The translations under genes and the position numbers were made by a program. The notes under the pieces are model-generated. The model was given only the letters and a program-made list of their open reading frames with translations. It had not been told where the DNA came from and did no database searches. A stretch of 63,881 nucleotides of DNA, filler included, from Collodictyon triciliatum (lineage: Eukaryota), in assembly GCA_043381765.1 (NCBI GenBank). It is 21 parts of 21 records of this genome, joined end to end, with 100 filler letters (N's around TTAATTAATTAA, not from the genome) between each part and the next. Parts side by side here need not be neighbours in the genome. Positions count along the whole stretch, not along the records: positions 15,348 to 18,310 come from JBHJMP010008004.1; 20 more parts are not named here. The stretch is one strand, 5' to 3'. Of the stretch, positions 1,742-60,328 are shown piece by piece (within the stretch, counting starts at the first letter, position 1; every line of letters begins with the position of its first letter).

Positions 1742-2755
1742 ATGGCATCGCATAAGGCGCTAGCACTCACGATCCTTTTTGTTGCTCTTTGTGAGAGCTT
1801 CGTGACGGGCGATAACGCCCAGAAGCTAAGTAACTTAGCGAGAGACAACAAAGCTCATCCACCTCACAAGTCTTCCCAGCCATACTTTCGTTCTTTCCTG
1901 AGCGAGAATTCTTTTTTTCAAACCACCAATCTTGTGTCGAAGAGAGCACCTGAGTTTAACCTTACAGTCGCTGGTATTGTTGACCACCATAAAGGTTAAT
2001 GAAACAGCTATTTACATGATTTTACAGAAAAACTAGTAGACTTTGATAAAAAAAAAAAAAAACAAGCAAACTAACAAACAATAGTACGCCTAAGCATCTT
2101 TTTATTGTCTGTGGATACTAAGGCGAAATAAATTATATATAGAGGCCATTAAATTCTCCATAAGGATCAAACCGAACACTGTCACTTTGCTGACAAACCC
2201 CTCTATATTTGGGCAGATACTCCGAGTGAGTTCCATTTGGTTTTCTAGATACATGTAGTGGAATTAATATCGACTATAATTTTTGTTTTTAAATAGGAAT
2301 TTCATATGACTCTATATTATAAAATCTCTTTCATGACTAATTATTATTTTATATATATATTTTTTTTTTAGCATTATCAGTGTTTTTTTTGCGATTTTTT
2401 TAGTCCATGATGTTTTATGAGAAAAAAAATATTCATCGACGGAAGTTTATCTGCGTCTCACCCGTTTAGATATCGTCTACAGCATCCATCGAATTTCCAA
2501 TACAAGTATCCACTTGGCAGACAGCATGTATTTTTCTAACTTTTCTCTATATTTCGAATTTATTACACCGCCCTTTTCAACACGCTCATCTATTTTATTC
2601 GATAATCCGTTTTGATAGCCCCTGTCGAAGTGTATGTGGCCTACGTGAACCCCTTCTATATCAGGGACAATTACAATGTTCAAGGAATCGACAACATATT
2701 CCAAGAACTAGACGATAAACTGGCCGCTCTCATTCGCGTTGTCATCGCCTCATGA
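1742..2755 (+). CDS. Secreted DUF302-like protein, 4 exons (about 1742-1994, 2142-2225, 2470-2527, 2619-2755)
   Basis: GT-AG splicing gives a signal peptide followed by ...SFFQTTNLVSKRAPEFNLTVAGIVDHHKEAIKFSIRIKPNTVTLLTNPSIFGQILR|ISSTASIEFPIQVSTWQTA|SPVEVYVAYVNPF...ELDDKLAALIRVVIAS*. This fits the DUF302 pattern (IDH, NP, LP.RV.VW, V.V.Y.P). Confidence 0.65.
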
Positions 2756-2967
2756 AGAAATATCACTGACCATCACCCAATTTCATTTCTTCTTGTTTCT
2801 TCTCTTCTTTTTCTCTTCTTTTTCTCTTCTTTTTCTCTTCTTTTTCTCTTCTTTTTCCTTACTCTATCCTTTTCATCATTCTTCGTTATCTTTGGTGTTG
2901 TTTCCCAGTGCAATGGAATAAAATGGAGAAAAAAAAACACTAATCTCAACATAAATATATTGATATA

Positions 2968-3067
2968 NNNNNNNNNNNNNNNNNNNNNNNNNNNNNNNNN
3001 NNNNNNNNNNNTTAATTAATTAANNNNNNNNNNNNNNNNNNNNNNNNNNNNNNNNNNNNNNNNNNNN
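2968..3067. other. Artificial contig linker (N44-TTAATTAATTAA-N44); first of about 19 copies in the window
   Basis: Identical 12-mer with stops in all six frames, embedded in N runs. It recurs at about 6078, 9145, 12211, 15292, 18355 ... 58132, 61189. Most flanks are microsatellites where the assembly broke. Confidence 0.97.
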
Positions 3068-3254
3068 ATAAATAATAGATAAATAATAGATAAATAATAG
3101 ATAAATAATAGATAAATAATAGATAAATAATAGATAAATAATAGATAAATAATAGATAAATAATAGATAAATAATAAAAGTATCAATATAAAATTTGATT
3201 TGATTAATACGGTTTATATTTCGTATACTATTTTGATTATCGAGAGTGAAACCT

Positions 3255-5860
3255 GTGGATATTTGTTTAAGTTCGCTTGCAATGCCACTATGACTGAGTG
3301 CAGGGACTTTGTATCCGCTAGTTGAATGCAACCTAATTGATTTGTTTTCCAATCGTCACAACGTTTTTTTTTAACTACGAGTACTATTATAACCACGAAA
3401 GTTCATTTTATATATGCATTCTAGGAGAAAAATTGGAAATTGTGGTAAAATAACGAATACTTGATTAGTGTCATGCTATGAATAATTTAAACTTATAGAG
3501 GAAAGCTTACACAACAGTTCGTGTAAAGCTTTTCGAATTTCGATATTAAAGTCCTCTAAAACGCCCAACCCAACATCTAACTACAAAATATATTGAACCT
3601 GATAATTTTTTTCCTTCCTCTCGTTTTTCTTCTAAAAATCTACGAAAAAATTAGACCAAAACATAGATTTAGAGTGATTCATTCCATACCTGGTCCTCGC
3701 TTAATTGAATATGATTGCGAAGTTTCTTAACACTGTTAATTGCATTTATGCGCACACTGTCGATTTCATCATTGAACATATCAACAAGGAAATCGAGAGC
3801 CTTCTTTGAAAAATCCTCTGATTGAGACCCCAACTCGCATATAGAGTCTTACATTTTTTTTTAAAAAAGGGAAACCATAGTCAAATGATAGCACTGATGA
3901 CGAAATATATTTTTAAAATCACATGAATTCTCAAAAAAATTAGTCGTGGTACCTATTGCAGCATTTCGCACTTCTAAATATTCATCCTCCAACCCATGAA
4001 TAAAAGCCCCGGCTGCACCACTCTCGAGAATATTAATCTCATCAATGGACCTAACTTCTTTGTCTCCTTGTGCAGACGCAGATCTAATATATTAAAAAAA
4101 TCCAACGATCTATATCACTGTGTAGAATGAATAAAATAAATAAATTGCACATCGTACATTGAGTCATAAGCTGATTATTTAAATAGTTTACGTAGATGTC
4201 ATAGCCCCTGTTTGAATTACTCGTCCGTGACTCAGGACCTCTTTGCTGAATGTCTGCATAAGTTTTGAGATGGAAACTCCATTCATGCTCCCCATCAAAC
4301 TGCATGCCTGGCCACCGAAATAAGTGAATGTTCAATATAACCTTCGCTCAAATATCACAGACATGGAAAACATGAATACATACATCATGGTCTTTCTATG
4401 GAAATTACCTCAGTGCGAATTTCAATGGACCTTGTGCAAAATCAATTTTTTTATTAACAAAAATATTAATAAATGCTAAATGTAATATTTGATTTTATGT
4501 TTCTCTTGTATAGATAACAAAACCAAAAACCAAAAACCAAGAATAAAAATGATAAAAATAAAGTAAAGAGTTACCGGTCATTCACCATATCACATATTTT
4601 CACGAATGCATCATCAATAAGTCGGACCTCTGGCGACGAAGTGTTCATATGTGCTGATGGGCGACTAACAGCATGGTTGGGATAGCTCTTTCCGAGAATC
4701 CTGTTCGCAATTACATTTAATAATTGGTAAATTAATTGTTCATGGTAACAATTTACAAATATAAATCATACAAGAGACTCTTTTGAGAGTTCATGTCAAT
4801 AAGAAAAGATAATGTATTCTGCGTTCATATCAATCAAAGAAAAAAAAACCAAATCAATTTCATCGCTCTTGAGCGTACGCTTTCATGGTCATCAGTAAGT
4901 GATGTTACTGATATCTACACAATAAAAATTTATTCAAGTCATAATAGTAACTTGTATCAACTGAAAGGGTATATCATATATAATTCATTACAACTCTTTT
5001 TTAAATTCTCTATACATATAAATTCGATTGCTATTGCGAGCATTAATAATAAAAAGTGAAAAAAAATATCAACGATGTTTCATACTTTGTAGAGATCAAT
5101 ATGAAGCGGGAAGTGTCTCGCATGAAGATTTAGTAAAGCATCGTATGCACTCTGTTGACATTCAATATTTTAAGAAATAAGCCGACCTGGGGGGCGGGGA
5201 GGTTGATATAATCAAAACTAAAATTATATTGGTGTTTATCGATAGCAAACTTACTGTTCTTACGATGGGATCGTAGTCTTGTATTAATTTTTCTATAAGT
5301 CCGAGGGATTCACCAAGAGAATCGAACGTCTTTTTTTTTTTTTTTTTTAAAAAAAAAAAGTCGAGAAAAAACATATTCAATCCTATAACTTTTTAAAGCT
5401 GCTTTAAATAATCATTTATAGATGTTATACCTGCAAATCAGATATGATTTTCAACGAAACACATCTTAAACTAGGGTCAGGGTGGCGGATAAACTTTTTA
5501 GCTAACGACAGCAATCTATTTACTTCCAATGTCTTGCACTAGAGTGAGTATTTTTTTTTAACGGAGGTATATGTGATGAAGTCGGATAAAATTGCAACAG
5601 ATAGTAAAACTTCTAAGATACAGGAACACAATCCTGATAAAATTTGAGGCATAAACAAAAAACCGAAAAATTAGGTTCACAAAAAAAAAAAAATGCAAGA
5701 ATACAGAGAAATAGAGGTGCATATATAGAAATTTCTATTTTATAGACACTTTATTTTTATCAAAATTCAATACGAAGTATTTACTTGTGAGATCAAGTTG
5801 AGGTATCTCATTAATTTCACAAGTATGCGGTGGTGCGTCTCTACTTCCTTTTCATGTATC
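3255..5860 (-). CDS. INTS4: Integrator complex subunit 4 (HEAT repeats), partial, about 12 exons
   Basis: Spliced exons read RLIDDAFVKICDMVND, ILESGAAGAFIHGLEDEYLEVRNAAI, SICELGSQSEDFSKKALDFLVDMFNDEIDSVRINAI and LQANLNKYPQ, which are characteristic INTS4 motifs. Confidence 0.88.
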
Positions 5861-5927
5861 TGATTGTGCGGTCATTTTAAATACTTATGATGTTTATTCC
5901 TCTGTGTTTTTGGGCGTGTTCTCACCA

Positions 5928-6033
5928 TATAATACAATATAATACAATATAATACAATATAATACAATATAATACAATATAATACAATATAATACAATAT
6001 AATACAATATAATACAATATAATACAATATAAT
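5928..6033. repeat. 10-bp tandem repeat (ATATAATACA)n
   Basis: About 10 perfect copies at a contig end. Confidence 0.9.
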
Positions 6034-15205: not shown

Positions 15206-15562
15206 ACAAAAAAAAAAAAAAAAAAAAAAAAAAAAACAAAAAAAAAANNNNNNNNNNNNNNNNNNNNNNNNNNNNNNNNNNNNNNNNNNNNTTAATTAAT
15301 TAANNNNNNNNNNNNNNNNNNNNNNNNNNNNNNNNNNNNNNNNNNNNGAAACCACCGACCCACGGGCAGCAAGATTAGTATGAATATAGTGTTAGGTATT
15401 AGTTGCTCTGATTCATTCATCCGTTTCTTTTTTCCTTTTTCCTTTTTCCTTTATCTTTTTATCTTTTTATCTTTTTATCTTTTTATCTTTTTATCTTTTT
15501 ATCTTTTTATCTTTTTATCTTTTTATCTTTTTTCTTTTATTTTCTTTTCGTTTCTTTTTTCT

Positions 15563-18243
15563 CTTCGGTCTCATTCAGCCTGTAAATGGATAAACTTCAT
15601 TACAAAGGTTGTGACGAACTTGGATTTATCTCTTTCAAGTCACAACACTTTTCATACAACGAAAGTGTACCCATAGAAAGCAACTTATTGCACAGGCAAC
15701 CATCGAATTAAATCTGGATTGACGAAAGCAGGAGCTTTGGTGAATCCAAGAAAGAACCAGAATAATATAACAGTATGATTAGAACATATAATAAGGTTAA
15801 AATAATGAATTATATCATTCTATTCATATTATTAATTTATATTTTATTTTTCATTTGTGCGATATTATCATCATAATTCAAAAATTACAAACCCTTGCGT
15901 TGGCTCAGACATAATCACCCTATAAACCTGCCACCAAACTTGTATTTCAAAAAAGCATACTATCCACACTTCCGGCGGTAATCATGTTGTTTGGGGCCGA
16001 TATGTTAAATTTCAGTCGCGATGGCTATACGGCCGTCCTTTCGAACTCACCGAATCAGCTCTCAGCTTTTTGTCTCAAATTACTCATAAAAAAAGTTGGT
16101 GTGTTTGTTTGCCACAATTCGCACATTCTGAAAGCCTTGGCAGATGCTTAGATTTACCTGAATTGATTTTATGCATTTTTTTATTATTAAATTGGCTGAT
16201 TGATAAAAGTTTTATTAAAATTGAAAACTCGGTAGTTTTCCAAAGAAAAAGTAAAACAAAGACTCTCAGATGAAAAAAAAACATCTTGAGTCTGAGAGTC
16301 TAAAGTGTGTAAAATCAGACTATCGAAATGTGAAAGCATCTCTAAAGTCGATTGTAAAGAATGCGGATGACTATGACAAATTCAACGATACGGTTTTATT
16401 GTGTCATAATTTGGTTACCGATACTTATCTGTTTGCAAGATGTTACTTATCGAAATCACAAAAGTCCCAACAATCGATGAATTTTTTTTTTTCGTACGCT
16501 CTAAAGACACTCGGAAAAGCTTCAAAAGGTAAACCCACAAGATTTAAAACATCCAGATATGAGAGATGACATGATGACTTTTTATCTCAATGATTTTCGA
16601 TTCCTTTTGTCCCAAGAAGAACGCTTTCCATTGATTGGACTGTCCCATGTGTTACCGTACTTTGCGAAGCAAATGTTAATATCTTATAATAACATTAAGG
16701 AGCAATTTGTAAAGAGGCTACTGCGCTTTATAAATCAAACGGTTCCTAAAGATGAGAATATTGCGGAAGCTATTCAAAAGGCAGAGTTACAAAACTTAAA
16801 AAAATCCATCTTCAAGAAAACCACAATACCGGAACAATATAAAGGATGGGCTACAACGCATTCGCATCATATCATTCCCAGCGAGATTGTAAAAGGTATC
16901 GAATATGACGCCAAAGTCAATCCAAATAAGTACACTCCATGTCTGATTTACATGAATCACATTTTTGAGGACATTAGAGCCAAACTGCTTCAACCATCCC
17001 ATAAGAACTGACAATATACCATGTCATATTACTCTAGATACTGCACCTTTGATATATTTATTAGCCAACTGGAAAAACATCATTACTCAAGAATATATCC
17101 GGATGCAAAGAGACACTATGGGATAAGTTCTTTGAAATGAAGAAGAAGGTCTTTCATCAAAGAGACTACAATTTTAAATATATGATACAAACAGACGGCT
17201 TGGCGGTGTCATTATTGTTTGAAAAGAAAGGTATTTCAAATACAAAATTCAAAAATTTAATCAAAACACCCAAGAATATGTTTATATTGATGAACTTTCC
17301 GAAGAGCGATTATCTTTATTAGCGAAAAAAAAAATATATTTGGGGTGGACGCAAGCAAGTTTAATTTGGTTTGCATGGTGTGTGAGACAGGTAAGTAATT
17401 ACGCTGCGCGACACACCAAAGAAGAGATGATAGCAAATCTCTTAAAAATCACAAAATACTCTTGCGCGAGAAAAAAGTAAGTACAATGCTTCAGGAATAT
17501 GCATGGCAACATGTTTACAAAGTGCTATTTCTTTTGGTCACATGACTTTTGAAGAGAATCAGCGGTTTGAGACATCAAGAGCATCTTTAATCGATTTAGA
17601 GACAGACCTGGGTAAACATAATCCATCCACAGTCGATTACGAAAAATTTCGAAAATATGTATCTATATAATCAAAATACCAGATAGAATTATCCAGATTT
17701 TATGAAGAAACTTTTCGAAAGATGAGATGGAGACAATATGTTAATACAAAAAGAACCGAACTATTGTTTATGGACTTAATCGAAAAGACACTTGGCGAGG
17801 ATGTTGTACTGGTGTATGGAGACTGGAGCAGAAAATGTCAGATGAAACATTTTATGCCAACAATCGAATGAGGATTACGAAAAATACTATCCTAAGGTTT
17901 TGAAAAAGGTAGCGTAAATAAATTTAGAACCTCCAAGATGTGCTGCAACTGCGAAAAAGAGCTGGAATATATGAAACTGAAAGGAAACTCAAAAGAAGTG
18001 TATAGATGTCTCATATGTAAAGAATGCAATCGCTCAGAAAGCAAGCAAAGTGTATTCTTGACAAAGGACTGCAACGGCGCTAAGAATATACTCAACAAAG
18101 TTCTTTCAACCTCCAAAATATGCATACACGTTCCTCTAAAAAAAGAGGCGGTTGGGTCTTTCCTGGCAGCCTTCACCACCACACAGCCTTTGTGAAAAAA
18201 AGTGGGGAGACCTTGGATACTAGCGCACTAAGTTTAACCAATC
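15563..18243 (+). mobile_element. Fanzor-carrying element, copy 1 (decayed)
   Basis: Collinear nucleotide similarity to 34343-36551 (+) and 46095-48874 (-) across the upstream ~700 bp and the ORF. The 3' hairpins are shared with copy 3. Confidence 0.88.
16270..18130 (+). pseudogene. Fanzor1 (TnpB-like RuvC nuclease), frameshifted
   Basis: N-term YRNVKASLKSIVK; IQTDGLAVSLLF; RuvC-I GVDASKFNLV; VLVYGDWS..MKHFMPT..GLRK; RuvC-II VNKFRTSKMC (E to K in this copy); Zn ribbon CCNC...CKEC; RuvC-III TKDCNGAKNIL. Several frameshifts and stops. Confidence 0.88.
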
Positions 18244-18411
18244 TTTGGATTGTTATATTCCTAATAGGAGAGCGTATAACAAAAAGAAAAAGAAAAGAAA
18301 TAAAGAAAAANNNNNNNNNNNNNNNNNNNNNNNNNNNNNNNNNNNNNNNNNNNNTTAATTAATTAANNNNNNNNNNNNNNNNNNNNNNNNNNNNNNNNNN
18401 NNNNNNNNNNC

Positions 18412-21824: not shown

Positions 21825-21904
21825 GGCAGTATGGCCGAGTGGTCTAAGGCGCTAGCTTTAGGCGCTAGTACGAAAGTGCGTGGGTTCAAATCCCACTGCT
21901 GTCA
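21825..21904 (+). tRNA. tRNA-Leu (anticodon UAG)
   Basis: GGCAGTA/TGCTGTC acceptor stem, D arm TGGCCGAGTGGTCTAAGGC, anticodon stem CTAGC-TTTAGGC-GCTAG, long variable arm, T arm GTGGGTTCAAATCCCAC, T-run about 15 nt downstream. Confidence 0.95.
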
Positions 21905-34201: not shown

Positions 34202-34342
34202 GTTGTTTCAGTGAAACTACGAATTCTTNNNNNNNNNNNNNNNNNNNNNNNNNNNNNNNNNNNNNNNNNNNNNNNNNNNNNNNNNNNNNNNNNNNNNNNN
34301 NNNNNNNNNNNNNNTCTTTTTCTTTTTCTTTTTTTTCTTTTT

Positions 34343-36551
34343 CTTCGGTTTCATTCAGGCTGTAAATTGATTAACTTCATTACAAAGCTTATGACGAACT
34401 TGGTTTTATCTCTTTCAAGGTACAACCCTTTTAATACAACGAAAGTGTACCCATACACGCAGCAATTTATTGCACAGACAGCCATCGAATTAAATCTGGA
34501 TTGACAAAACCAAAAGCTTTAATGAATCCAAGAAGCCACCTGAATAATATAATAGTATAATATATATAATAAGGTTAAAATACTTAATAATCTCGTTCTA
34601 TTCTTGTAATCAATTTATATTTTATTTTCCATAATGTAATATTAGCATTAAAACTCAAAAATGACAAACAAGCCCTTGCCTTGGCCCAGACAGAACACAC
34701 CCTATAAACCTGCCACCAAGCATGCATTCCAAAAAAGCATACTATCCACACTTGTGGCAGTAATCATGTTGTTTGAGGCCGATATGTTCACTTTCGGTCG
34801 TAATGGCCATACGGCCGTCCTTTCGAACTCGACGAATCGGCTCTCAGCGTTTTGTCACAAATCACTTGTAAATTTTTTTGTGTGCGTTTGTTTGCCAGAA
34901 TGTACACATTTTGAGAGTATCGGCAGATGGTTCATTTTACCTAAATTGATTTTGTGTAGTTTTTTCTTATCTTTTTTTTTTATTAAATCGACTGATTGAA
35001 TAAGGTTTTACTAAAATCGAAAACTTGGTATCTAAAGGAAAAAGTAAAACAAAGACATTCATATGAAGGAAAGGAAATGTCTTGGGTCTGAGAATCTAAA
35101 GTCTGTAAAACCAAACTATTGAAATGTGAAAACGTCTCGAAAGTCGATTGTAAAGAATGTGGATGACTATGACATAACCAGTGATACAGTTTTATTGTGT
35201 CATAATTGGTTACCGACACTTCTCTGTTTGCAAGATGTTACGTATTGAAATCACAACAACTCTCTACCAATCGATGAAATGGCGGGGGGTTTGTACGCTT
35301 TTAAGATAGTCGGAATAGTTTCACAAGATAGACCCGCAAGTTTAAAACAAAAAAAAACATCCAGAAATGAGAGACGACATGATGACTTTTTATCTCAACG
35401 ATTTTCGATATATTTTGTCCCAAGAACGCTTTCTGTTGGCTAGACTGTCTCATGTATTACCGTATTTGGTGAAGCAAGTGTTAACAGCTTATCAATATAA
35501 CATCAAGGAGTACATTTTGTAAAGAGGTTACTGCGCTTATAAATCAAACAGTTCCTAAAGAATAGAATATGACGGAAGCTGTTAAAAAGGCAGAGTTACG
35601 AAATTAAAAAAGACATCTTTATGAAACTCGAAATACCGGAACAATATAAAGAATGGGCTATATCGCATTTGCATCATATCACTCCCAACAATATTGTAAA
35701 TGGTATCGAATATGATATCAAAGTCAATCCAAATAAGTACATTCCATGTCTAATTTATGAATCGCATTTTTAAGGGCATTGAACCAAAATGCTTCAACCA
35801 ATCCTTTTAAGAACTAACAATATAACATCATGTAATATTTCTTTAGATACTGCATGTTAGATAGATTTATTAGTATTAACTGGAAAAACATCAATAATGA
35901 AGAATATATCAGGATGCAAAGAGACAGTATGGGATAAGTTCTTTGAAATGAAGAAGAGGGTCTTTCATCAAATAGACTACAATTTTAAATACACGATGCA
36001 AACAGACGGCTTGGTGGTGTCATTATTATTTGAAAAGAAAGGTATTTCAAATTCAAAATTACAATTCAAAAAAAAAAAACCTCAATATGTTTTTTTAGAT
36101 GAACTTTCCGAAGAGCAGTTATCTTTATCAGCGATAAAAGATAGTTAGAGTAGATGTAGGAAAGTTTAATTTGGTTTACAAGGTGGATGAGACAGGTAAG
36201 AAATTACGTTACACGGCACACCAAACATTACATGATAGCAAATCTCTTAAAAATCACACAATACTCTTGTGTGAGAAAAAAGAAAAAAGTACAATTCTTC
36301 AGGGATATGTATGGTAACAGGTTTACAAAATGCTGTTTCTTTTGGTCACAGGACTTTTGAAGAGAATCAGTGGTTTGAGACATTAAGAGTATCTTTAATC
36401 GATTTAGAGACAGAACTGAATAGACATAATTCATGCACGGTCGATTATGAAAAATTCGAAAGAATGTATCTATGAAATCAAGATACCAGGCAGAATTTTC
36501 CAGATTTTATGAACAAGTAACTTTTCGAAAGATGAGATGGAGATATTATGT
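34343..36551 (+). mobile_element. Fanzor-carrying element, copy 2 (decayed, 3' truncated after RKMRWRY)
   Basis: Collinear with copy 1: MQTDGLVVSLLF, GVDVGKFNLVY, FYEQVTFRKMRWR. It lacks RuvC-II, RuvC-III and the 3' hairpins. Confidence 0.85.
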
Positions 36552-37070
36552 TTTTTTTTTTTTAATTATTCCATTCAATTTTGTGCAAAATGGTGGAGAT
36601 GTTGGCTTTAGTTCGCAAGTCATCGTTTGCATGGACGCTACTTGGTGGCCGGGTGGCGGAGAAGTAGTCGGTAATCAGNNNNNNNNNNNNNNNNNNNNNN
36701 NNNNNNNNNNNNNNNNNNNNNNTTAATTAATTAANNNNNNNNNNNNNNNNNNNNNNNNNNNNNNNNNNNNNNNNNNNNATAATAATAAGAGAAATTAAAT
36801 GAATGAACTTCTTAATCAAATATTCATGTTCAGATTCAGCACGCCTGTCTGATTGACAAACCAGCATGCAGCCGCGCCTTCTTTTACCTCCGCGATGAGC
36901 ACTATGCTGTCGAACATGCCAAGAGCGAGGAAGAAAGAAAGCTTTTCCAAGCTGAAAGCGAAGAGGCGGTATAAAATTGATAAAAAGTCTTGTGTTTTCG
37001 TTTTCGAGCAATGATGTTATGTTTATATAATGACTTAATTTTTTACATGTATTTTAATGTATTATTTTAG

Positions 37071-45951: not shown

Positions 45952-46003
<52 letters not shown>

Positions 46004-46094
46004 GCAGCAGCAAAAAAAAAAAAAAGGAGAAACGACGGAGGGTTTTTGGGAAAACTTTTCATGCCAAGCAAACCCCATCGAACTTGAGGAATGT

Positions 46095-46290
46095 GACCCG
46101 AACAAAGACGCAGAATTTTTGCAGCTTCAAACTTATTCACGCAAAGTTTTATACAAATGGAGGGAGTACACCAACTTTCGATTGGTAAACGTGGTGCGCT
46201 AGTATCCAAGGTCTCATCACTTTTTTCACAGAGGTTGTGCAGTGGTGAAGGCTGCCAGGAAAGACCCAACAGCCTGTTTTTTTAAAGAAA
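46095..46290 (-). ncRNA. Candidate Fanzor omegaRNA scaffold
   Basis: Directly 3' of the ORF, with successive hairpins at 46249-46275, about 46213-46248 and 46170-46186 (GAAA loop). The first two are conserved in copy 1. Confidence 0.55.
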
Positions 46291-48874
46291 GGTGTATGCA
46301 TTATTTTGAAGGATGAAAAGAACTTTCTTGAGTATATTACTAGCGCTGTTAAGTCCCTTGTCAAGAATACACTTTGTTTGCTTTCTGAACGATTGCATTC
46401 TTCTCACATGAGACATTTATACACTTTTTTTGAATTTCCTTTCAGTTTCATGTATTCCAGTTCCTTTTCGCAGTTGCAACACATCTTGGAGGTACTAAAT
46501 TCGTTTACAATAATTGGTTCAAAACGTTTGGATTGTATTTTTTATAACCCTCTTCCGATTGTTGGCATAAAAAGTTCGTCGGACATTTTTTGCTCCAGTC
46601 TCCATACACCAGTACAACATCCCTGCCAAATGTCTTTTCGATTCGGTCCATAAACAACTGTTCACTCCTTTTTGTATCGATATATTGTCTCCATATCATC
46701 TTTCGAAAAGCTACTTGTTCATAAAATCTGGAAAATTCTATCTGGTATCCTGATTTCATAGATACATAATCTCGAAATTTTTCATAATTGACCATGCATG
46801 AATTATGTTTACTCAGTTCTGTCTCTAAATCGTTTAAGGATGCTCTTAATCTCTCAAACTGCTGATTCTCTTCAAAAGTCCTGGGAACAAAAGAAACAGC
46901 ACTTTGTTAATCCGTTGCCATGCATATCCCTGAAGCGTTGTACTTTTCTTTTTTCTCGCATGAGTATTTTGTGATTTTCAAGAGATTTGCTATCATGTCT
47001 TCTTTGGTGTGTCGTGTGACGTAATTTCTTACCTGTCTCATCCGCCATGTAAACCAAATTAAACTTGCCTGTGTCCACTCAAACTATTTTTTTTTTTTTG
47101 TCTCTAATAAAGATAATCGCTCTTCGGAAAGTTCATCTATATAAACATATTCTTGGGTGTTTTGATTAAATTTGGATTTTGAATTTGAAACACCTTTCTT
47201 TTCAAACAATAATGACACCGCCAAGCCGTCTGTTTGTATCATGTATTTAAAATTCTAGTCTCTTTGATGAAAGACCCTCTTCTTCATATCAAAGAATTCA
47301 TCCCATAGTGTCTCTTTGCATCTTGATATATTCTTCAGTAATGATGATTTCCAAGTTGATACTAATATATTTATTAGACATGCAGTATCTAGAGTAATAT
47401 AATATGGTATATTGGTAGTTCTTATAGAGATTGGTGGAAACAGTTTGGCTCCAATGTCCTCAAAAATGCGATTCGTATAAATCAGACATGGTATGCACTT
47501 ATTTGGATTGACTTTGACATCATATTTGATACATTTTACAATATCGCTGGGAATGATACGATTCAAATGCGCTATAGCCCATTCTTTATATTGTTCCGGT
47601 ATTTTGAGTTTCTTGAAGATGGCTTTTTTTAAAGTCTTATAACTCTGGCTTTTTAATAGCTTCCGTAACATTCTCATCTTAAGGTACTGTTTGATTTAAA
47701 AAGCGCAGTAACCTATTTACAAAATGTTCCTTAATGTTATTATGATAAGCTGTTAACATTTGCTTCGCCAAGTACGGTAATATATGAGACAGTCCAACCA
47801 ACGGTAAGCGTTCTCGGGACAAAAGGAATCGAAAATCATTGAGATAAAAAGTCATCATTTCATCTCATTTCTGGTTTTTTTATCTTGCTGGTCAATCTTG
47901 TGAAACTTCTCCGACAGTCTTTAAAGCGTACAAAAACAACTTTTCATCGATTGTTGGGAGTTGTTGTGATTTCAATATGTAACATCTTGCAAACAGATAA
48001 AGCGTCGGTAACCAAGTTATGACACAATAAAACGGTACCGTTGATTTTGTCATAGTCATCTGCATTCTTTACAATCGACTTTAGAGATGTTTTTACATTT
48101 CGATAGGGTGGTTTTACAGACTTTGGATTCTCATACTCAAGATGTTTACTTTTCTTCATCTGAAAGTCTTTGTTTTACTTTTTCTTTTAAAAAAATATAG
48201 AGTTTTCAATTTTAATAAAACTTGAGTCAATCAGTCAATTTGATATTAAATAAATAAATAATCAATTAAGGTATAATTAAGCATCTACCGAGGCTTTCAA
48301 AATGTGCGCATTGTTGCAATCAGACACACAAAGTTTTTTACAAGTGATTTGAGACAAAACGCTGAGAGCCGATTCGGCGTGTTTGAAAGGACGGTGGTAT
48401 AGCCATTTCGACTGAAAGTCAACATATCGGCCCCAAACAACATGATTACCGCCGCAAGTGTGGGTGGTATGCTTTTTCGAAATGCATGTTTAGTGGCAGG
48501 TTTATAGGGTGGGTTCTGTCTGGGCTAAGGCAAGGGATTATTTGTCATTTTTGAATTTTCATGATATTGATAATATTAAATAATGTAAAATAAAATATAA
48601 ATTGATTGTAGGAACAGATAGAGATGATCAAGTATTTTTAATCTTATTATATACTAATTATACTAATATATTATTCAGTATTGTTTCTTGGATTCATCTA
48701 AGCTCCTGCTTTTGTCGATCCATATTTAATTCGATGGTTGTCAGTGCAATAAATTATTATATATGGATACACTTTTGTTGTATAAAAAGTGTTGTGTCTT
48801 GAAAGGGATATAACCACGTTCGTCACAAGCTTTGTAATGACGTTTATCCATTAACAGGCTGAATGAAACCGAAG
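46095..48874 (-). mobile_element. Fanzor-carrying element, copy 3 (decayed, longest 3' end)
   Basis: ORF remnants from 48159 to about 46300: YRNVKTSLKSIVK, GVDTGKFNLVY, VLVYGDWS, IVNEFSTSKMCCNC, CEEC, LTRD. All three RuvC acidic residues are present. The structured 3' region follows; its exact end is uncertain. Confidence 0.88.
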
Positions 48875-49011
48875 AGAAAGGAAAGAGAAAAGAGAAAAGA
48901 GAAAAGAGAANNNNNNNNNNNNNNNNNNNNNNNNNNNNNNNNNNNNNNNNNNNNTTAATTAATTAANNNNNNNNNNNNNNNNNNNNNNNNNNNNNNNNNN
49001 NNNNNNNNNNA

Positions 49012-52070: not shown

Positions 52071-52703
52071 GCACGAGGCTCTCAAGCCTGGCTACATTGA
52101 TTTCTCGTTCGGGTGAATCATTGGAGCGAGAGAATGCACGCACACTCCATAAGGACCACAGCATATGTCCCCTTGTGACTGTCCAGAGTATTCTAGAGTC
52201 GTGGGTCATTTGGTATTGTGGGCCAAACAGGATGTCAGACGCGCTGAGACGGTTGGGAGCATAATCAAGCTCAGAGAGCATCTTGTGGGTAGAATCTGTC
52301 ACTTTTTGAGCAAGAGAGCACTTCACAAATGTGTGTTCGATAGAGTCATCTCTACTATGGCACATGGTGCATTCTGGAGAGGTCGTTGCTGCATGGACTA
52401 CGCGCGCACCTATCCACAGCTCTCTGTTGGAGATATTGAGAATTAAGGCGCGGTGTTTCTTGAGTAGCTGAGATATATGGGCTTGCTTCCAGCTTTGTAA
52501 TTTTGATTATCCGTAGTGATGAAGTTGCGGCAGATATCTTCCAGCTCCTTCAGCCTCTTGAGATTCAGCAAAGTGCCTTTCATGTTGTAGATAAGGGTCG
52601 ACAGCATCACTTGGTTCCACAACCTTACTTTCACCGGCAACCAAGAGATACAAATTGCTCCATACTGATATTTTTGATGAAACATCCGAATGCTGCACAA
52701 CAA
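52071..52703 (-). mobile_element. Degraded non-LTR (L1/Tx1-like) retrotransposon ORF2 C-terminal fragment
   Basis: zf-RVT-like CAMCHSRDDSIEHTFVKC...LWSLWSVR, plus post-RT KVRLWNQVMLSTLIY...LKELEDICRNF; stops and deletions present. Confidence 0.7.
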
Positions 52704-58417: not shown

Positions 58418-58882
58418 AACCATAATCAAATGGAAGAGATTGAAAAAATAATATTTTAAAAAAAAAAACAAAACAATGATACTACAGTTCATTCCTTGTG
58501 GCACTTGCTGTGTAAGATAATGATTCCACATTTGAAAATAATTCCGTACCTTTCCAAACCACAGCTCCTTTTTTAATGAAGGACACCCAAAAGCGGAAGA
58601 GACAAAAAAAACCAAATCAAATATACCTCAGACAACGCGTTGGGTGCGCTTTTAACGGTTTGGATGTGGAACGTCACTTTCGGGAAGGAGAGTGTTCGGT
58701 GGCTTTTATGCACGGGTTCTCGGGAAGGAAGTATGTCACGCTCTGCTCTGTGGGAAGTTGTGGCGCTTCTGGAAAGAAGGGTTGCATGAAAACCCAGGAA
58801 GTTGTGGCTTAGCTTTATAATTGGTGATGTACTCCGACACGAGCGCGGTAGGCCTTTTTTTTTTCCTCCCGCTAAGACGCAT

Positions 58883-58890
58883 ATAAAAGA
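58883..58890 (+). promoter_or_regulatory. Putative TATA box of the carboxypeptidase gene
   Basis: TATAAAAG about 180 nt upstream of the likely ATG at 59063. Confidence 0.45.
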
Positions 58891-59062
58891 GCAGAGGCCA
58901 AGGAGCCGCGAGACAAGAGAAGTCCTAGCGAGGCAGAATCTTTTTGCAGGAGGGAAGCATCGAACAACAAAAAGCCGCAAAGCCAGAGGAAGAGAGCAAG
59001 CAGAAGCAGCAGCCATCGCAACGAAAGACCGACCGGAGAGAGCAACGGCAGCCCATCCAAGG

Positions 59063-60328
59063 ATGATGAGCAGCATGAGGATTGCGGCGCTTCTGGGGCT
59101 GGTGGTGGTGTCCGCCGCCGTGGTTGCGGGGCTGCCGCTGGACCAGAAGGAGGCGATGGAGCGAGTGCGCTACGACGGCGAGTCTGTCGTCCACGCGGTG
59201 ATCGACACGGTGCCGAAGGCGAGCGTGGTGGAGAATCTGGGGCTGGACGTGTGGCTGCGGTCGGGCGAAGGCGCGTGGGACGTCCGCGTGAGCGCCGAGC
59301 AGCTGGGCCTGCTGCAGAGCCACGGCATCGAGACGCGCACATTCATCCCGGATCTGCAGGCGGTGATTGACGCGACGCAGCCGCGGGAGGCGCCGCTGGT
59401 GGACGCGGACGCCTTCTTCGACGACTACCGGCGCTACGACGACATCATCGCCTTCTACAAGCAGCGGGCGGCGCAGTATGCGGGCCTGGTGGTGAAGCAG
59501 GCGGTGGTGGGCAAGTCGATTGAGGGCCGCGACATCCACGCGTTCCACCTGCGGGGGCGGGCGTCCGGGGCGAGGAAGCTGTTCTGGATGGGCGGGCTGC
59601 ACGCGCGCGAGTGGATCTGCCCGTCCACGGTTGCGTTCCAGTTCGAGCAGCTGCTGTCGCTCTACGGCCGGGACGCGGACGCCACGTTCATCCTGGACAC
59701 GTTCGAGGTGGTCATTGTGCCCGTGGCCAACCCGGACGGGTACGAGTACTCGCACGTGCGCGACCGCCTGTGGCGCAAGAACCGCCGCGTCAACGCAGGG
59801 TCCGCGTGCATCGGCGTGGATCTCAACCGCAACTGGGACGCAAAGTGGGCGCAGGGCGGGTCCTCCAACTCGCCGTGCTCGGACACGTACCACGGCACGT
59901 CTGCCTTCTCGGAGCCCGAGACGCGCCTCATCAGCAACTACTTCCTGGGCCTCGGCAAGGTCGATGCCGCCATCGACTTCCACTCGTACACGCAGCTGAT
60001 TCTGCGCCCGTACGGCTACACGCGCACAGACGCCCCCGACGAGGCCCAGATGAAGGCGTGCGGCGACGGCATGGCAGCCGCCATCCTCCCCGTCCACGGC
60101 AAGGCCTACACCTCCCAGAAGTCGATTGACCTCTACGTCACCACCGGCACCACCGGCGACTGGTTCTACCTCGCCTCCAACTACCACGCTTGGACATACA
60201 CCTTTGAGCTGCGTGACACCGGCCGCTACGGCTTTGTCCTCCCGCCCGACCAGATTGTGCCCCAGGGCGAGGAGATCTGGGCCGCCATGAAGTACTTTGC
60301 AAGGTACGTGGCCAGCAACCACCCTTAG
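59063..60328 (+). CDS. Secreted zinc carboxypeptidase, M14A family, with signal peptide and propeptide; intronless
   Basis: GLHAREW, NPDGY, WRKNRR, GVDLNRNW, FSEPE, DFHSY, YTFELRDTG.YGF.LP..QI. The likely start is MMSSMRIAALL, not the start of the ORF track. Confidence 0.96.
   Translation: MMSSMRIAALLGLVVVSAAVVAGLPLDQKEAMERVRYDGESVVHAVIDTVPKASVVENLGLDVWLRSGEGAWDVRVSAEQLGLLQSHGIETRTFIPDLQAVIDATQPREAPLVDADAFFDDYRRYDDIIAFYKQRAAQYAGLVVKQAVVGKSIEGRDIHAFHLRGRASGARKLFWMGGLHAREWICPSTVAFQFEQLLSLYGRDADATFILDTFEVVIVPVANPDGYEYSHVRDRLWRKNRRVNAGSACIGVDLNRNWDAKWAQGGSSNSPCSDTYHGTSAFSEPETRLISNYFLGLGKVDAAIDFHSYTQLILRPYGYTRTDAPDEAQMKACGDGMAAAILPVHGKAYTSQKSIDLYVTTGTTGDWFYLASNYHAWTYTFELRDTGRYGFVLPPDQIVPQGEEIWAAMKYFARYVASNHP

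Follow-up and report, generated by a model that had tools for sequence, protein, structure and literature searches.

Does the protist Collodictyon triciliatum carry a working family of Fanzor RNA-guided nucleases, or the remains of one? The question is raised by a stretch of 63,881 bases from the assembly GCA_043381765.1, referred to below as the window, which consists of 21 separate contigs (each of 2955-2981 nt, the last one cut at 2637 nt) and in which three places resemble Fanzor genes. Our analysis indicates that these three places are very probably copies of a pseudogenised repeat of ~2.7 kb that has Fanzor1 as its sole recognisable gene, that spread and then decayed, and whose lineage is sister to one found in giant viruses.

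An all-versus-all blastn comparison of the 21 contigs finds a single repeated family in the window. Its three members are present and collinear, as an earlier note on this DNA had described, and are 82-85% identical: copies 1 and 3 share 85.3% of their DNA over 2756 nt, copies 1 and 2 share 82.1% over 2261 nt, and copies 2 and 3 share 83.1% over 2271 nt, with identity flat along the repeat unit. Copy 1, delimited by blastn and a three-way alignment, is a whole unit made of a 5' leader, a Fanzor1 pseudogene and a short 3' tail (15526-18245, plus strand, in the contig at 15348-18310). Copy 3 is likewise whole by blastn (46180-48909, minus strand, contig 45952-48910). Copy 2 (34318-36552, plus strand, contig 34315-36678) has the same 5' boundary as the others and is truncated on its 3' side at residue 495 of the frame, passing into unrelated sequence at 36552. 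The limits given in the earlier note agree with ours for copies 1 and 2 on the plus strand, and for copy 3 on the minus strand they run ~85 nt beyond detectable homology on the 3' side.

Homology among the three copies starts at a common 5' point directly after a CT-rich microsatellite, which lies at 15430-15560 in front of copy 1. CT-rich repeats of different unit types precede copy 2 (34315-34345) and copy 3 (48910-48890) at the equivalent place. At the other end, the homology of copies 1 and 3 stops ~50 nt beyond the stop codon, and an AG-rich run of complementary type closes copy 1 at 18278-18310. Viewed on the minus strand the repeat has the look of retroposed copies, with an A/G-rich tail at a common 3' end and a variably truncated far end (copy 2), a pattern that rests on three copies, too few to decide.

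Evidence from sequence, profiles and fold soundly places the family in the Fanzor1 branch of the TnpB-like RuvC nucleases, which bears out the family assignment of the earlier note. A read-through translation of copy 1 (P0001; 17446-18192, 249 residues, with X at three stops) matches PpFz1 at an expect value (E) of 1.7e-9 and SpuFz1 at E 6.2e-5. The closest intact relative in public protein sets is P0002, a protein of 648 aa from a 2610-nt environmental contig, which is 59%, 56% and 61% identical to copies 1, 2 and 3 over their whole frames; it matches GtFz1 (E 2.1e-28), PpFz1 (2.7e-24) and SpuFz1 (3.7e-23) across residues 4-575. The closer relatives are short fragments. P0019, P0052 and P0081 are open reading frame (ORF) fragments of 74-136 aa from NCBI-sourced contigs 513-629 nt long. 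They share 60-77% identity with the window copies as against 58-66% with P0002, and probably represent additional decayed members of the family, from this assembly or a related, very fragmented one. An exhaustive HMMER search returned 1429 cluster representatives at E<=1e-3, with 477 at <=1e-10 and 12 at <=1e-30.

The earlier note had proposed a structure prediction against Fanzor1, and the AlphaFold model of P0002, built with a 25-row alignment (pLDDT 82.5, predicted template-modelling score 0.81), supports the assignment for this relative. The predicted structure superposes on SpuFz1 with a template-modelling (TM) score of 0.71-0.79 and E ~1e-26 in Foldseek (0.74 normalised by the query and 0.79 by the target). 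GtFz1 scores 0.63 and 0.66 on the same two scales, and PpFz1 is also among the best structural matches. Query-normalised TM scores against Fanzor2, TnpB and Cas12f are 0.20-0.23, including 0.21 with the ISDra2 TnpB and 0.21 (0.28 by target) with ApmFz2. The Fanzor1 fold of WED, REC, RuvC and zinc-ribbon parts, as opposed to that of Fanzor2 and TnpB, is thereby seen in the model of the intact relative P0002. Other searches added little. Single ORF fragments of the window copies gave one Pfam match, to Cas12f1-like_TNB and below threshold (E 0.005); P0002 and a viral ORF of the kind described below had no match in a Pfam copy without PF26935; a phage collection held no match to the family; and a metagenome contig scan with P0002 yielded one distant locus at 21% identity. 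A 99-aa C-terminal fragment, compared alone with the PDB, gave only noise and was set aside.

The active-site motifs named in the earlier note (GVD or VD, YGDWS, NEF.TS, CCNC...CLICKEC and RD) are all present once the frames are corrected. In the numbering of P0002, D364, G521 (of YGDWS), E555 (of NEF.TS) and D604 are invariant in 25/25 full-length relatives, a layout that matches the published Fanzor signature. Fanzors are reported to carry Gly or Pro at the canonical Glu of RuvC-II and an alternative essential Glu ~35-45 residues downstream (PMC10530073); G500 and E536 of Fanzor1 have been called "extremely conserved", within a motif D-X(125,275)-[TS][TS]-X-X-[C4 zinc finger]-X(5,50)-RD (PMC3627910); and the catalytic site of SpuFz1 has been given as D383/E541/D606 (PMC10432273). 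P0002 has the Bao-Jurka motif order throughout (D364...T558 S559...C562/C565...C584/C587/C590...R603 D604), and the frame-corrected copies 1 and 3 keep this order in damaged form.

The damage reaches the catalytic residues themselves. On the plus strand of copy 1, the RuvC-I Asp codon of GVD (17348-17350), a column invariant in 25/25 full-length relatives, lies in a frame isolated from both neighbours by frameshifts. The Gly of YGDWS (17818-17820) occupies the canonical RuvC-II Glu position, replaced as in Fanzors, and the invariant alternative Glu has become Lys (AAA at 17920-17922, NKF for NEF). The counterpart of this last position in the aligned SpuFz1 chain is the DEY.TS Glu, which is E541 as calculated from the tag offset. 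The zinc-ribbon remnant CCNC ... CLICKEC (17941-18027) is the site of the weak Cas12f1-like_TNB match, and RuvC-III reads KD for the RD of the family (18064-18069), with Asp kept and Arg changed to Lys. Copy 3, on the minus strand, retains the catalytic Asp (47075-47073), Glu (46502-46500) and Asp (46355-46353) together with the Gly, so that both elements of the rearranged RuvC-II are kept; NEF.TS and RD are also intact, and the codon of the zinc ligand Cys587 is now TGA. Among the 25 full-length relatives, four (P0050, P0111, P0132 and P0135) are without the zinc-ribbon CxxC pairs and keep Asp/Glu/Asp.

Every copy is broken in all frames. Using a frameshift-aware alignment guided by P0002, we recovered the Fanzor1 pseudogene of copy 1 at 16270-18195 on the plus strand (aligned over 16273-18183 to P0002 residues 3-642 at 59% identity, with 4 stops and 6 frameshifts), the coding remnant of copy 2 at 35063-36552 on the plus strand (residues 1-495, 4 stops and 10 frameshifts) and that of copy 3 at 48159-46244 on the minus strand (residues 1-640, 6 stops and 10 frameshifts). 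Disabling lesions, counted as stops plus frameshifts, thus number 10 in copy 1, 14 in copy 2 in addition to its 3' truncation, and 16 in copy 3, and an uninterrupted coding sequence is found in none of the three. The lesions lie at different positions, as had been claimed: all 14 in-frame stops (7 TAA, 4 TGA and 3 TAG) differ among the copies, and 13 of them fall in aligned codons, where each is private to one copy and faces a sense codon in the others, most often one base away (AAA to TAA, CGA to TGA, TAC to TAG). Frameshifts mostly differ as well; two poly-A runs (near residues 358 and 405) are sites where every copy is shifted, by amounts that differ.

The earlier note had further held that a consensus protein could be rebuilt from the three copies. 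This did not prove to be the case, since a simple majority consensus gives no single ORF and changes frame at least four times, in pieces of 93, 278, 94, 157 and 80 aa. It remains broken because the poly-A shifts are common to all copies and because only copies 1 and 3 cover the last ~150 aa. To recover the frame of ~640 aa, a homologue is needed as guide.

Three ways of decoding across the breaks were considered and rejected. Reassignment of a stop codon fails because the stops are private and stand opposite K, S, Q, R, T, L, E, Y, G or C in P0002 and the other copies. An 18-nt mini-intron at the GTAAGT string of copy 1 fails because frameshift types vary between copies and stops are private, and programmed frameshifting at the poly-A runs fails in the same way, the type of shift differing from copy to copy.

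How the copies diverged is told by their substitutions. The pairwise ratios of nonsynonymous to synonymous change (dN/dS) are 0.78, 0.68 and 0.87, and differences are spread about evenly over codon positions 1/2/3 (91/92/85, 89/81/93 and 85/81/70). The leader is 83.5-84% identical among copies as compared with 85-88% for the coding part, and in the tree the order of branching among the copies is unresolved, the three separating at one point on end branches of 0.13-0.22. These data are most simply read as a single, old burst of copying, after which the copies decayed neutrally. As the copies are old and have decayed almost neutrally, they give no sign of recent activity.

The closest company of this lineage is viral. 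In a language-model protein atlas the nearest clusters (score 0.99) have a viral share of 92-100% (Nucleocytoviricota) and bear the Pfam family DUF8286, a name that our literature search did not find. A scan of IMG/VR with a 4-row alignment as query identified 38 loci encoding relatives, mostly on contigs of giant-virus metagenome-assembled genomes (MAGs); P0002 alone as query gave no viral loci. Some of these loci adjoin a capping enzyme or ribonucleotide reductase gene, and the best of them are 44-47% identical to P0002, in the case of locus L002 across residues 1-648. In the tree the window copies and P0002 group at a Shimodaira-Hasegawa-like approximate likelihood-ratio (SH-aLRT) support of 100, and the sister of this group, at a support of 95, is a clade made up of P0004 and five viral loci. 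The stem between the window clade and the viral one is long (0.53 changes per site), and rows from viruses and from unnamed metagenome sequences are mixed all through the tree.

In the giant viruses the Fanzor gene is part of a transposon. A DDE_3/HTH transposase of ~345 aa adjoins it in at least 24 of the 38 loci, some of which have truncated flanks. Terminal inverted repeats (TIRs) of ~32 nt ending ...GGTGTAAA flank the unit as an inverted pair, one member lying on the far side of the transposase, in 18/38 loci and also in L001. L002 contains a complete unit of ~3.3 kb (2637-5952) with 32-nt TIRs, a minus-strand DDE_3/HTH transposase and a Fanzor1 of 634 aa; complete units of this size are also found in L003, L004, L005, L006, L023 and other giant-virus MAG loci. 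A conserved 3' block of ~160 nt spans the last ~110 nt of the ORF and ends at the right-hand repeat of the unit. In its fold 15/33 pairs are compensatory among 6 sequences, and its place and look are those expected of a guide-RNA scaffold, for which we regard it as a candidate. Comparable arrangements are described in a 2024 preprint on a giant endogenous virus of Chlamydomonas, which mentions full elements with Fanzor1 and an IS630-Tc1-mariner transposase, variants in the same algal virus that are degraded or reduced to a Fanzor gene and the right end, and a diverged Fanzor fragment in the host genome with 80% nucleotide identity (10.1101/2024.09.03.611062).

We looked for the same parts in the window. 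The best tblastn match to the DDE_3 transposase has E 0.75, and such matches lie at unrelated places and none in the leaders; the viral TIR, with up to 3/22 mismatches allowed, matches nowhere in the window. The sole terminal inverted pair of copy 1 is a low-complexity CT/AG pair, 72% complementary, that does not occur in copy 3.

The window copies begin instead with a conserved non-coding 5' leader of ~725 nt that is common to all three (15545-16269, plus strand, in copy 1). Conservation on both sides of Fanzor ORFs has been reported for some families (PMC10530073). The leader has no match in Pfam or in Rfam, and tblastx against the giant-virus loci found neither a match nor a trace of transposase. 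In its stop-poor part (15900-16150), 0/61 predicted pairs of a three-copy consensus fold are compensatory. An open frame of 75-115 aa is kept in the middle of this otherwise stop-rich leader in all three copies (15915-16148 plus, 34652-34996 plus and 48524-48300 minus in copies 1, 2 and 3). Neither Pfam nor the retrieved loci yielded a relative of this frame, which could have stayed open by chance or could represent a small ORF or a lost exon.

On the 3' side, SpuFz1 is described as having a guide-RNA region of ~80 nt that lies after the stop codon and before the 3' inverted repeat (PMC10432273). The matching position in copy 1 is its 3' tail (18196-18245, plus strand), which gave no structure signal. 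Copies 1 and 3 are 70.6% identical over 18196-18265, and the folding of 18040-18265 in copy 1 is not better than that of shuffles (z = +0.83). A covariance model of the giant-virus 3' block has no match at the 3' end of copy 1 or copy 3, its best match in the window (E 0.094) being on an unrelated contig. Rfam finds no structured 3' RNA at the copies, its one match in the window being a tRNA on another contig. By folding, covariance model and Rfam, then, the structured 3' non-coding RNA that characterises OMEGA systems was not found in the window copies. The window family may have had a divergent 3' RNA, of which only two decayed copies cover the relevant part.

How such a repeat would have worked can be sketched by analogy with the solved and assayed Fanzor1 proteins. 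Its active ancestor, of ~640 aa, would have bound an RNA transcribed from its own 3' end as guide, recognised a short motif adjacent to a guide-complementary target, and cut the DNA with a rearranged Asp/alternative-Glu/Asp RuvC site backed by a zinc ribbon of C4 type. On this account the family reached three or more places in a eukaryote genome and later decayed without selection. Its lineage is sister to the Fanzor1 that giant-virus genomes carry in TIR-bounded IS630/Tc1-mariner-like transposons, and the window copies are "solo" units that have no transposase. Several points weigh against this account. No copy is intact, and hence nothing indicates activity of the window lineage. The structured 3' RNA, TIRs and transposase sought in the window were not found there. 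The fold and most of the sequence evidence come from the relative P0002 and not from the window's broken protein. The tree comes from a quick search with SH-aLRT support only and an arbitrary (midpoint) root, dN/dS below 1 allows some minor divergence under selection before death, and some homopolymer frameshifts could be assembly errors.

A more far-reaching version of this history is rather unlikely in our view. It would make the window lineage and P0002 a host-resident Fanzor1 branch that escaped from a viral Tc1/mariner-Fanzor, shed the transposase, the TIRs and the viral guide-RNA block, and multiplied solo with its own leader and a different guide RNA, with intact members persisting in this genome or a sister one.

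The earlier note had also taken three copies in 64 kb as a physical density and had concluded from it that a high-copy family with possible intact, active members exists. The make-up of the window speaks against both steps. Spacers of the form N44-TTAATTAATTAA-N44 separate the contigs (the first at 2968-3067, then every ~3.06 kb) and place a stop in all six frames; one of the 21 contigs also has an internal gap of 86 N. Because the contigs are unlinked across the spacers, arguments from neighbourhood that span a spacer are void, and the apparent density amounts to 3/21 unlinked contigs of similar length, joined artificially. Being unlinked and grouped by length, they say little about copy number in the genome. 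A 2.7-kb repeat flanked by simple repeats, at which a short-read assembly breaks, would be expected to accumulate in this length class, and the fraction of 3/21 then overstates the genome-wide density. With contigs unlinked and copies old and near-neutrally decayed, the conclusion of a high-copy family with intact active members is not supported.

The family could nevertheless be alive: the dead trio would then belong to a high-copy Fanzor1 family with intact members, competent for guide RNA, at other places in the genome. A sequencing-run index returned five runs, each with a small share of words (0.06-0.10) and no RNA run listed, and these shares carry no weight here. That the repeat occupies 3/21 contigs would agree with this, as would the dN/dS somewhat below 1, the existence of an intact 648-aa relative in environmental data, and P0019, P0052 and P0081, which are closer to the copies than to P0002 and make more members probable. 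Yet these additional relatives are fragments of 74-136 aa, the length-grouped, unlinked contigs presumably enrich for just such a repeat bounded by simple repeats, and the intact relative, only 56-61% identical, represents another lineage. Since each copy also bears 10-16 lesions and the three diverged near-neutrally from one point, we consider a living family unlikely, and prefer the reading of a repeat that spread once and died.

A different origin, as debris of endogenised giant-virus DNA and not as a host repeat that multiplied by itself, is suggested by the overwhelmingly viral DUF8286 clusters nearest to the family and by a sister clade of giant-virus MAG genes; an alga and the giant endogenous virus it hosts have, moreover, been reported to share Fanzor1 elements (10.1101/2024.09.03.611062). 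We judge it quite improbable: the viral transposase, 32-nt TIR and 3' RNA block are undetectable in the window, the leader and the common 5' boundary are the family's own and neither is matched in viral loci, a long stem lies between the window and viral clades, and the 10 ORFs tested on other contigs belong to cellular or retroelement families or are unmatched, with no viral hallmark among them. Extremely improbable is the idea that the genes are intact and only seem broken, whether through errors of sequencing or assembly, an unusual genetic code, tiny introns or programmed frameshifting. Several frameshifts do lie in poly-A or poly-T runs, and a GTAAGT...CAG string stands at one frameshift of copy 1, but all three stop codons are used at varied residues so that no single reassignment fits, the copies differ in 15-18% of their DNA, copy 1 has Lys at the catalytic Glu and copy 3 a stop at a zinc-ligand Cys, and the relatives are uninterrupted ORFs. 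The pseudogenised solo repeat accordingly remains the preferred explanation.

Elsewhere in the window, the other contigs indicate an intron-bearing eukaryote, with ordinary genes, some of them as exon-sized blocks. Their content includes kelch, WD40, M14 carboxypeptidase, cyclin, ABC transporter and amidohydrolase genes and a zf-RVT ORF from a non-LTR (long terminal repeat) retroelement (52072-52506, minus strand, E 5e-7). The sole Rfam match in the window is an 80-nt tRNA gene (21825-21904, plus strand, 59.3 bits). One contig (58188-61144) has a G+C content of 45-51% as against ~35% elsewhere in the window, and may be foreign or come from a region of distinct composition. It has a long (CA)n run and an ORF (58790-60328) for an M14 zinc carboxypeptidase that looks complete.

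Fanzor1 proteins are compact eukaryotic RNA-guided genome editors, and new lineages are thus of practical interest. The three window copies are dead and add no usable enzyme; the repeat is a real but ordinary relic and not a working gene. They do tie the window family to a large and mostly unnamed Fanzor1 subfamily, the 1429 cluster representatives at E<=1e-3 that are linked with DUF8286, and they provide one more Fanzor1 lineage common to a cellular genome and giant viruses, a kind of sharing already published (10.1101/2024.09.03.611062). An assay would do better to start from the intact viral units or P0002 than from a consensus of these three copies, and the giant-virus Tc1/mariner-Fanzor1 link is the most informative context.

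Compared with known systems, the family shares with Fanzor2, TnpB and Cas12f a RuvC fold and a zinc ribbon within one superfamily (Foldseek probability 1.0 for P0002), but stands apart from them at query-normalised TM scores of 0.20-0.23 to P0002. Its likeness to SpuFz1, GtFz1 and PpFz1 is much closer: homology of the frame from end to end, ~640 aa with a basic N-terminus, the layout Asp...YG(D/N)WS...(D/N)E(F/Y).TS-CxxC...CxxC...RD, and for the P0002 model the same fold at TM 0.63-0.79. It differs from these solved Fanzor1 proteins in that identity to P0002 is just 18-20% in structural alignment, and in that the window copies are broken and have no recognisable inverted repeats or guide-RNA structure. 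The elements of the Chlamydomonas virus, compared here by description only, are also Fanzor1; their copies are reported as >99% identical within a family and expressed (10.1101/2024.09.03.611062), whereas the window copies are 82-85% identical and dead. With the Tc1-Fanzor1 units of the giant viruses the differences lie in the surroundings of the gene, the transposase, TIRs and structured 3' block being theirs and the 725-nt leader being the window's own, while the resemblance lies in the gene itself, which has equal protein length, shares the nearest atlas clusters and belongs to the sister clade (SH-aLRT 95).

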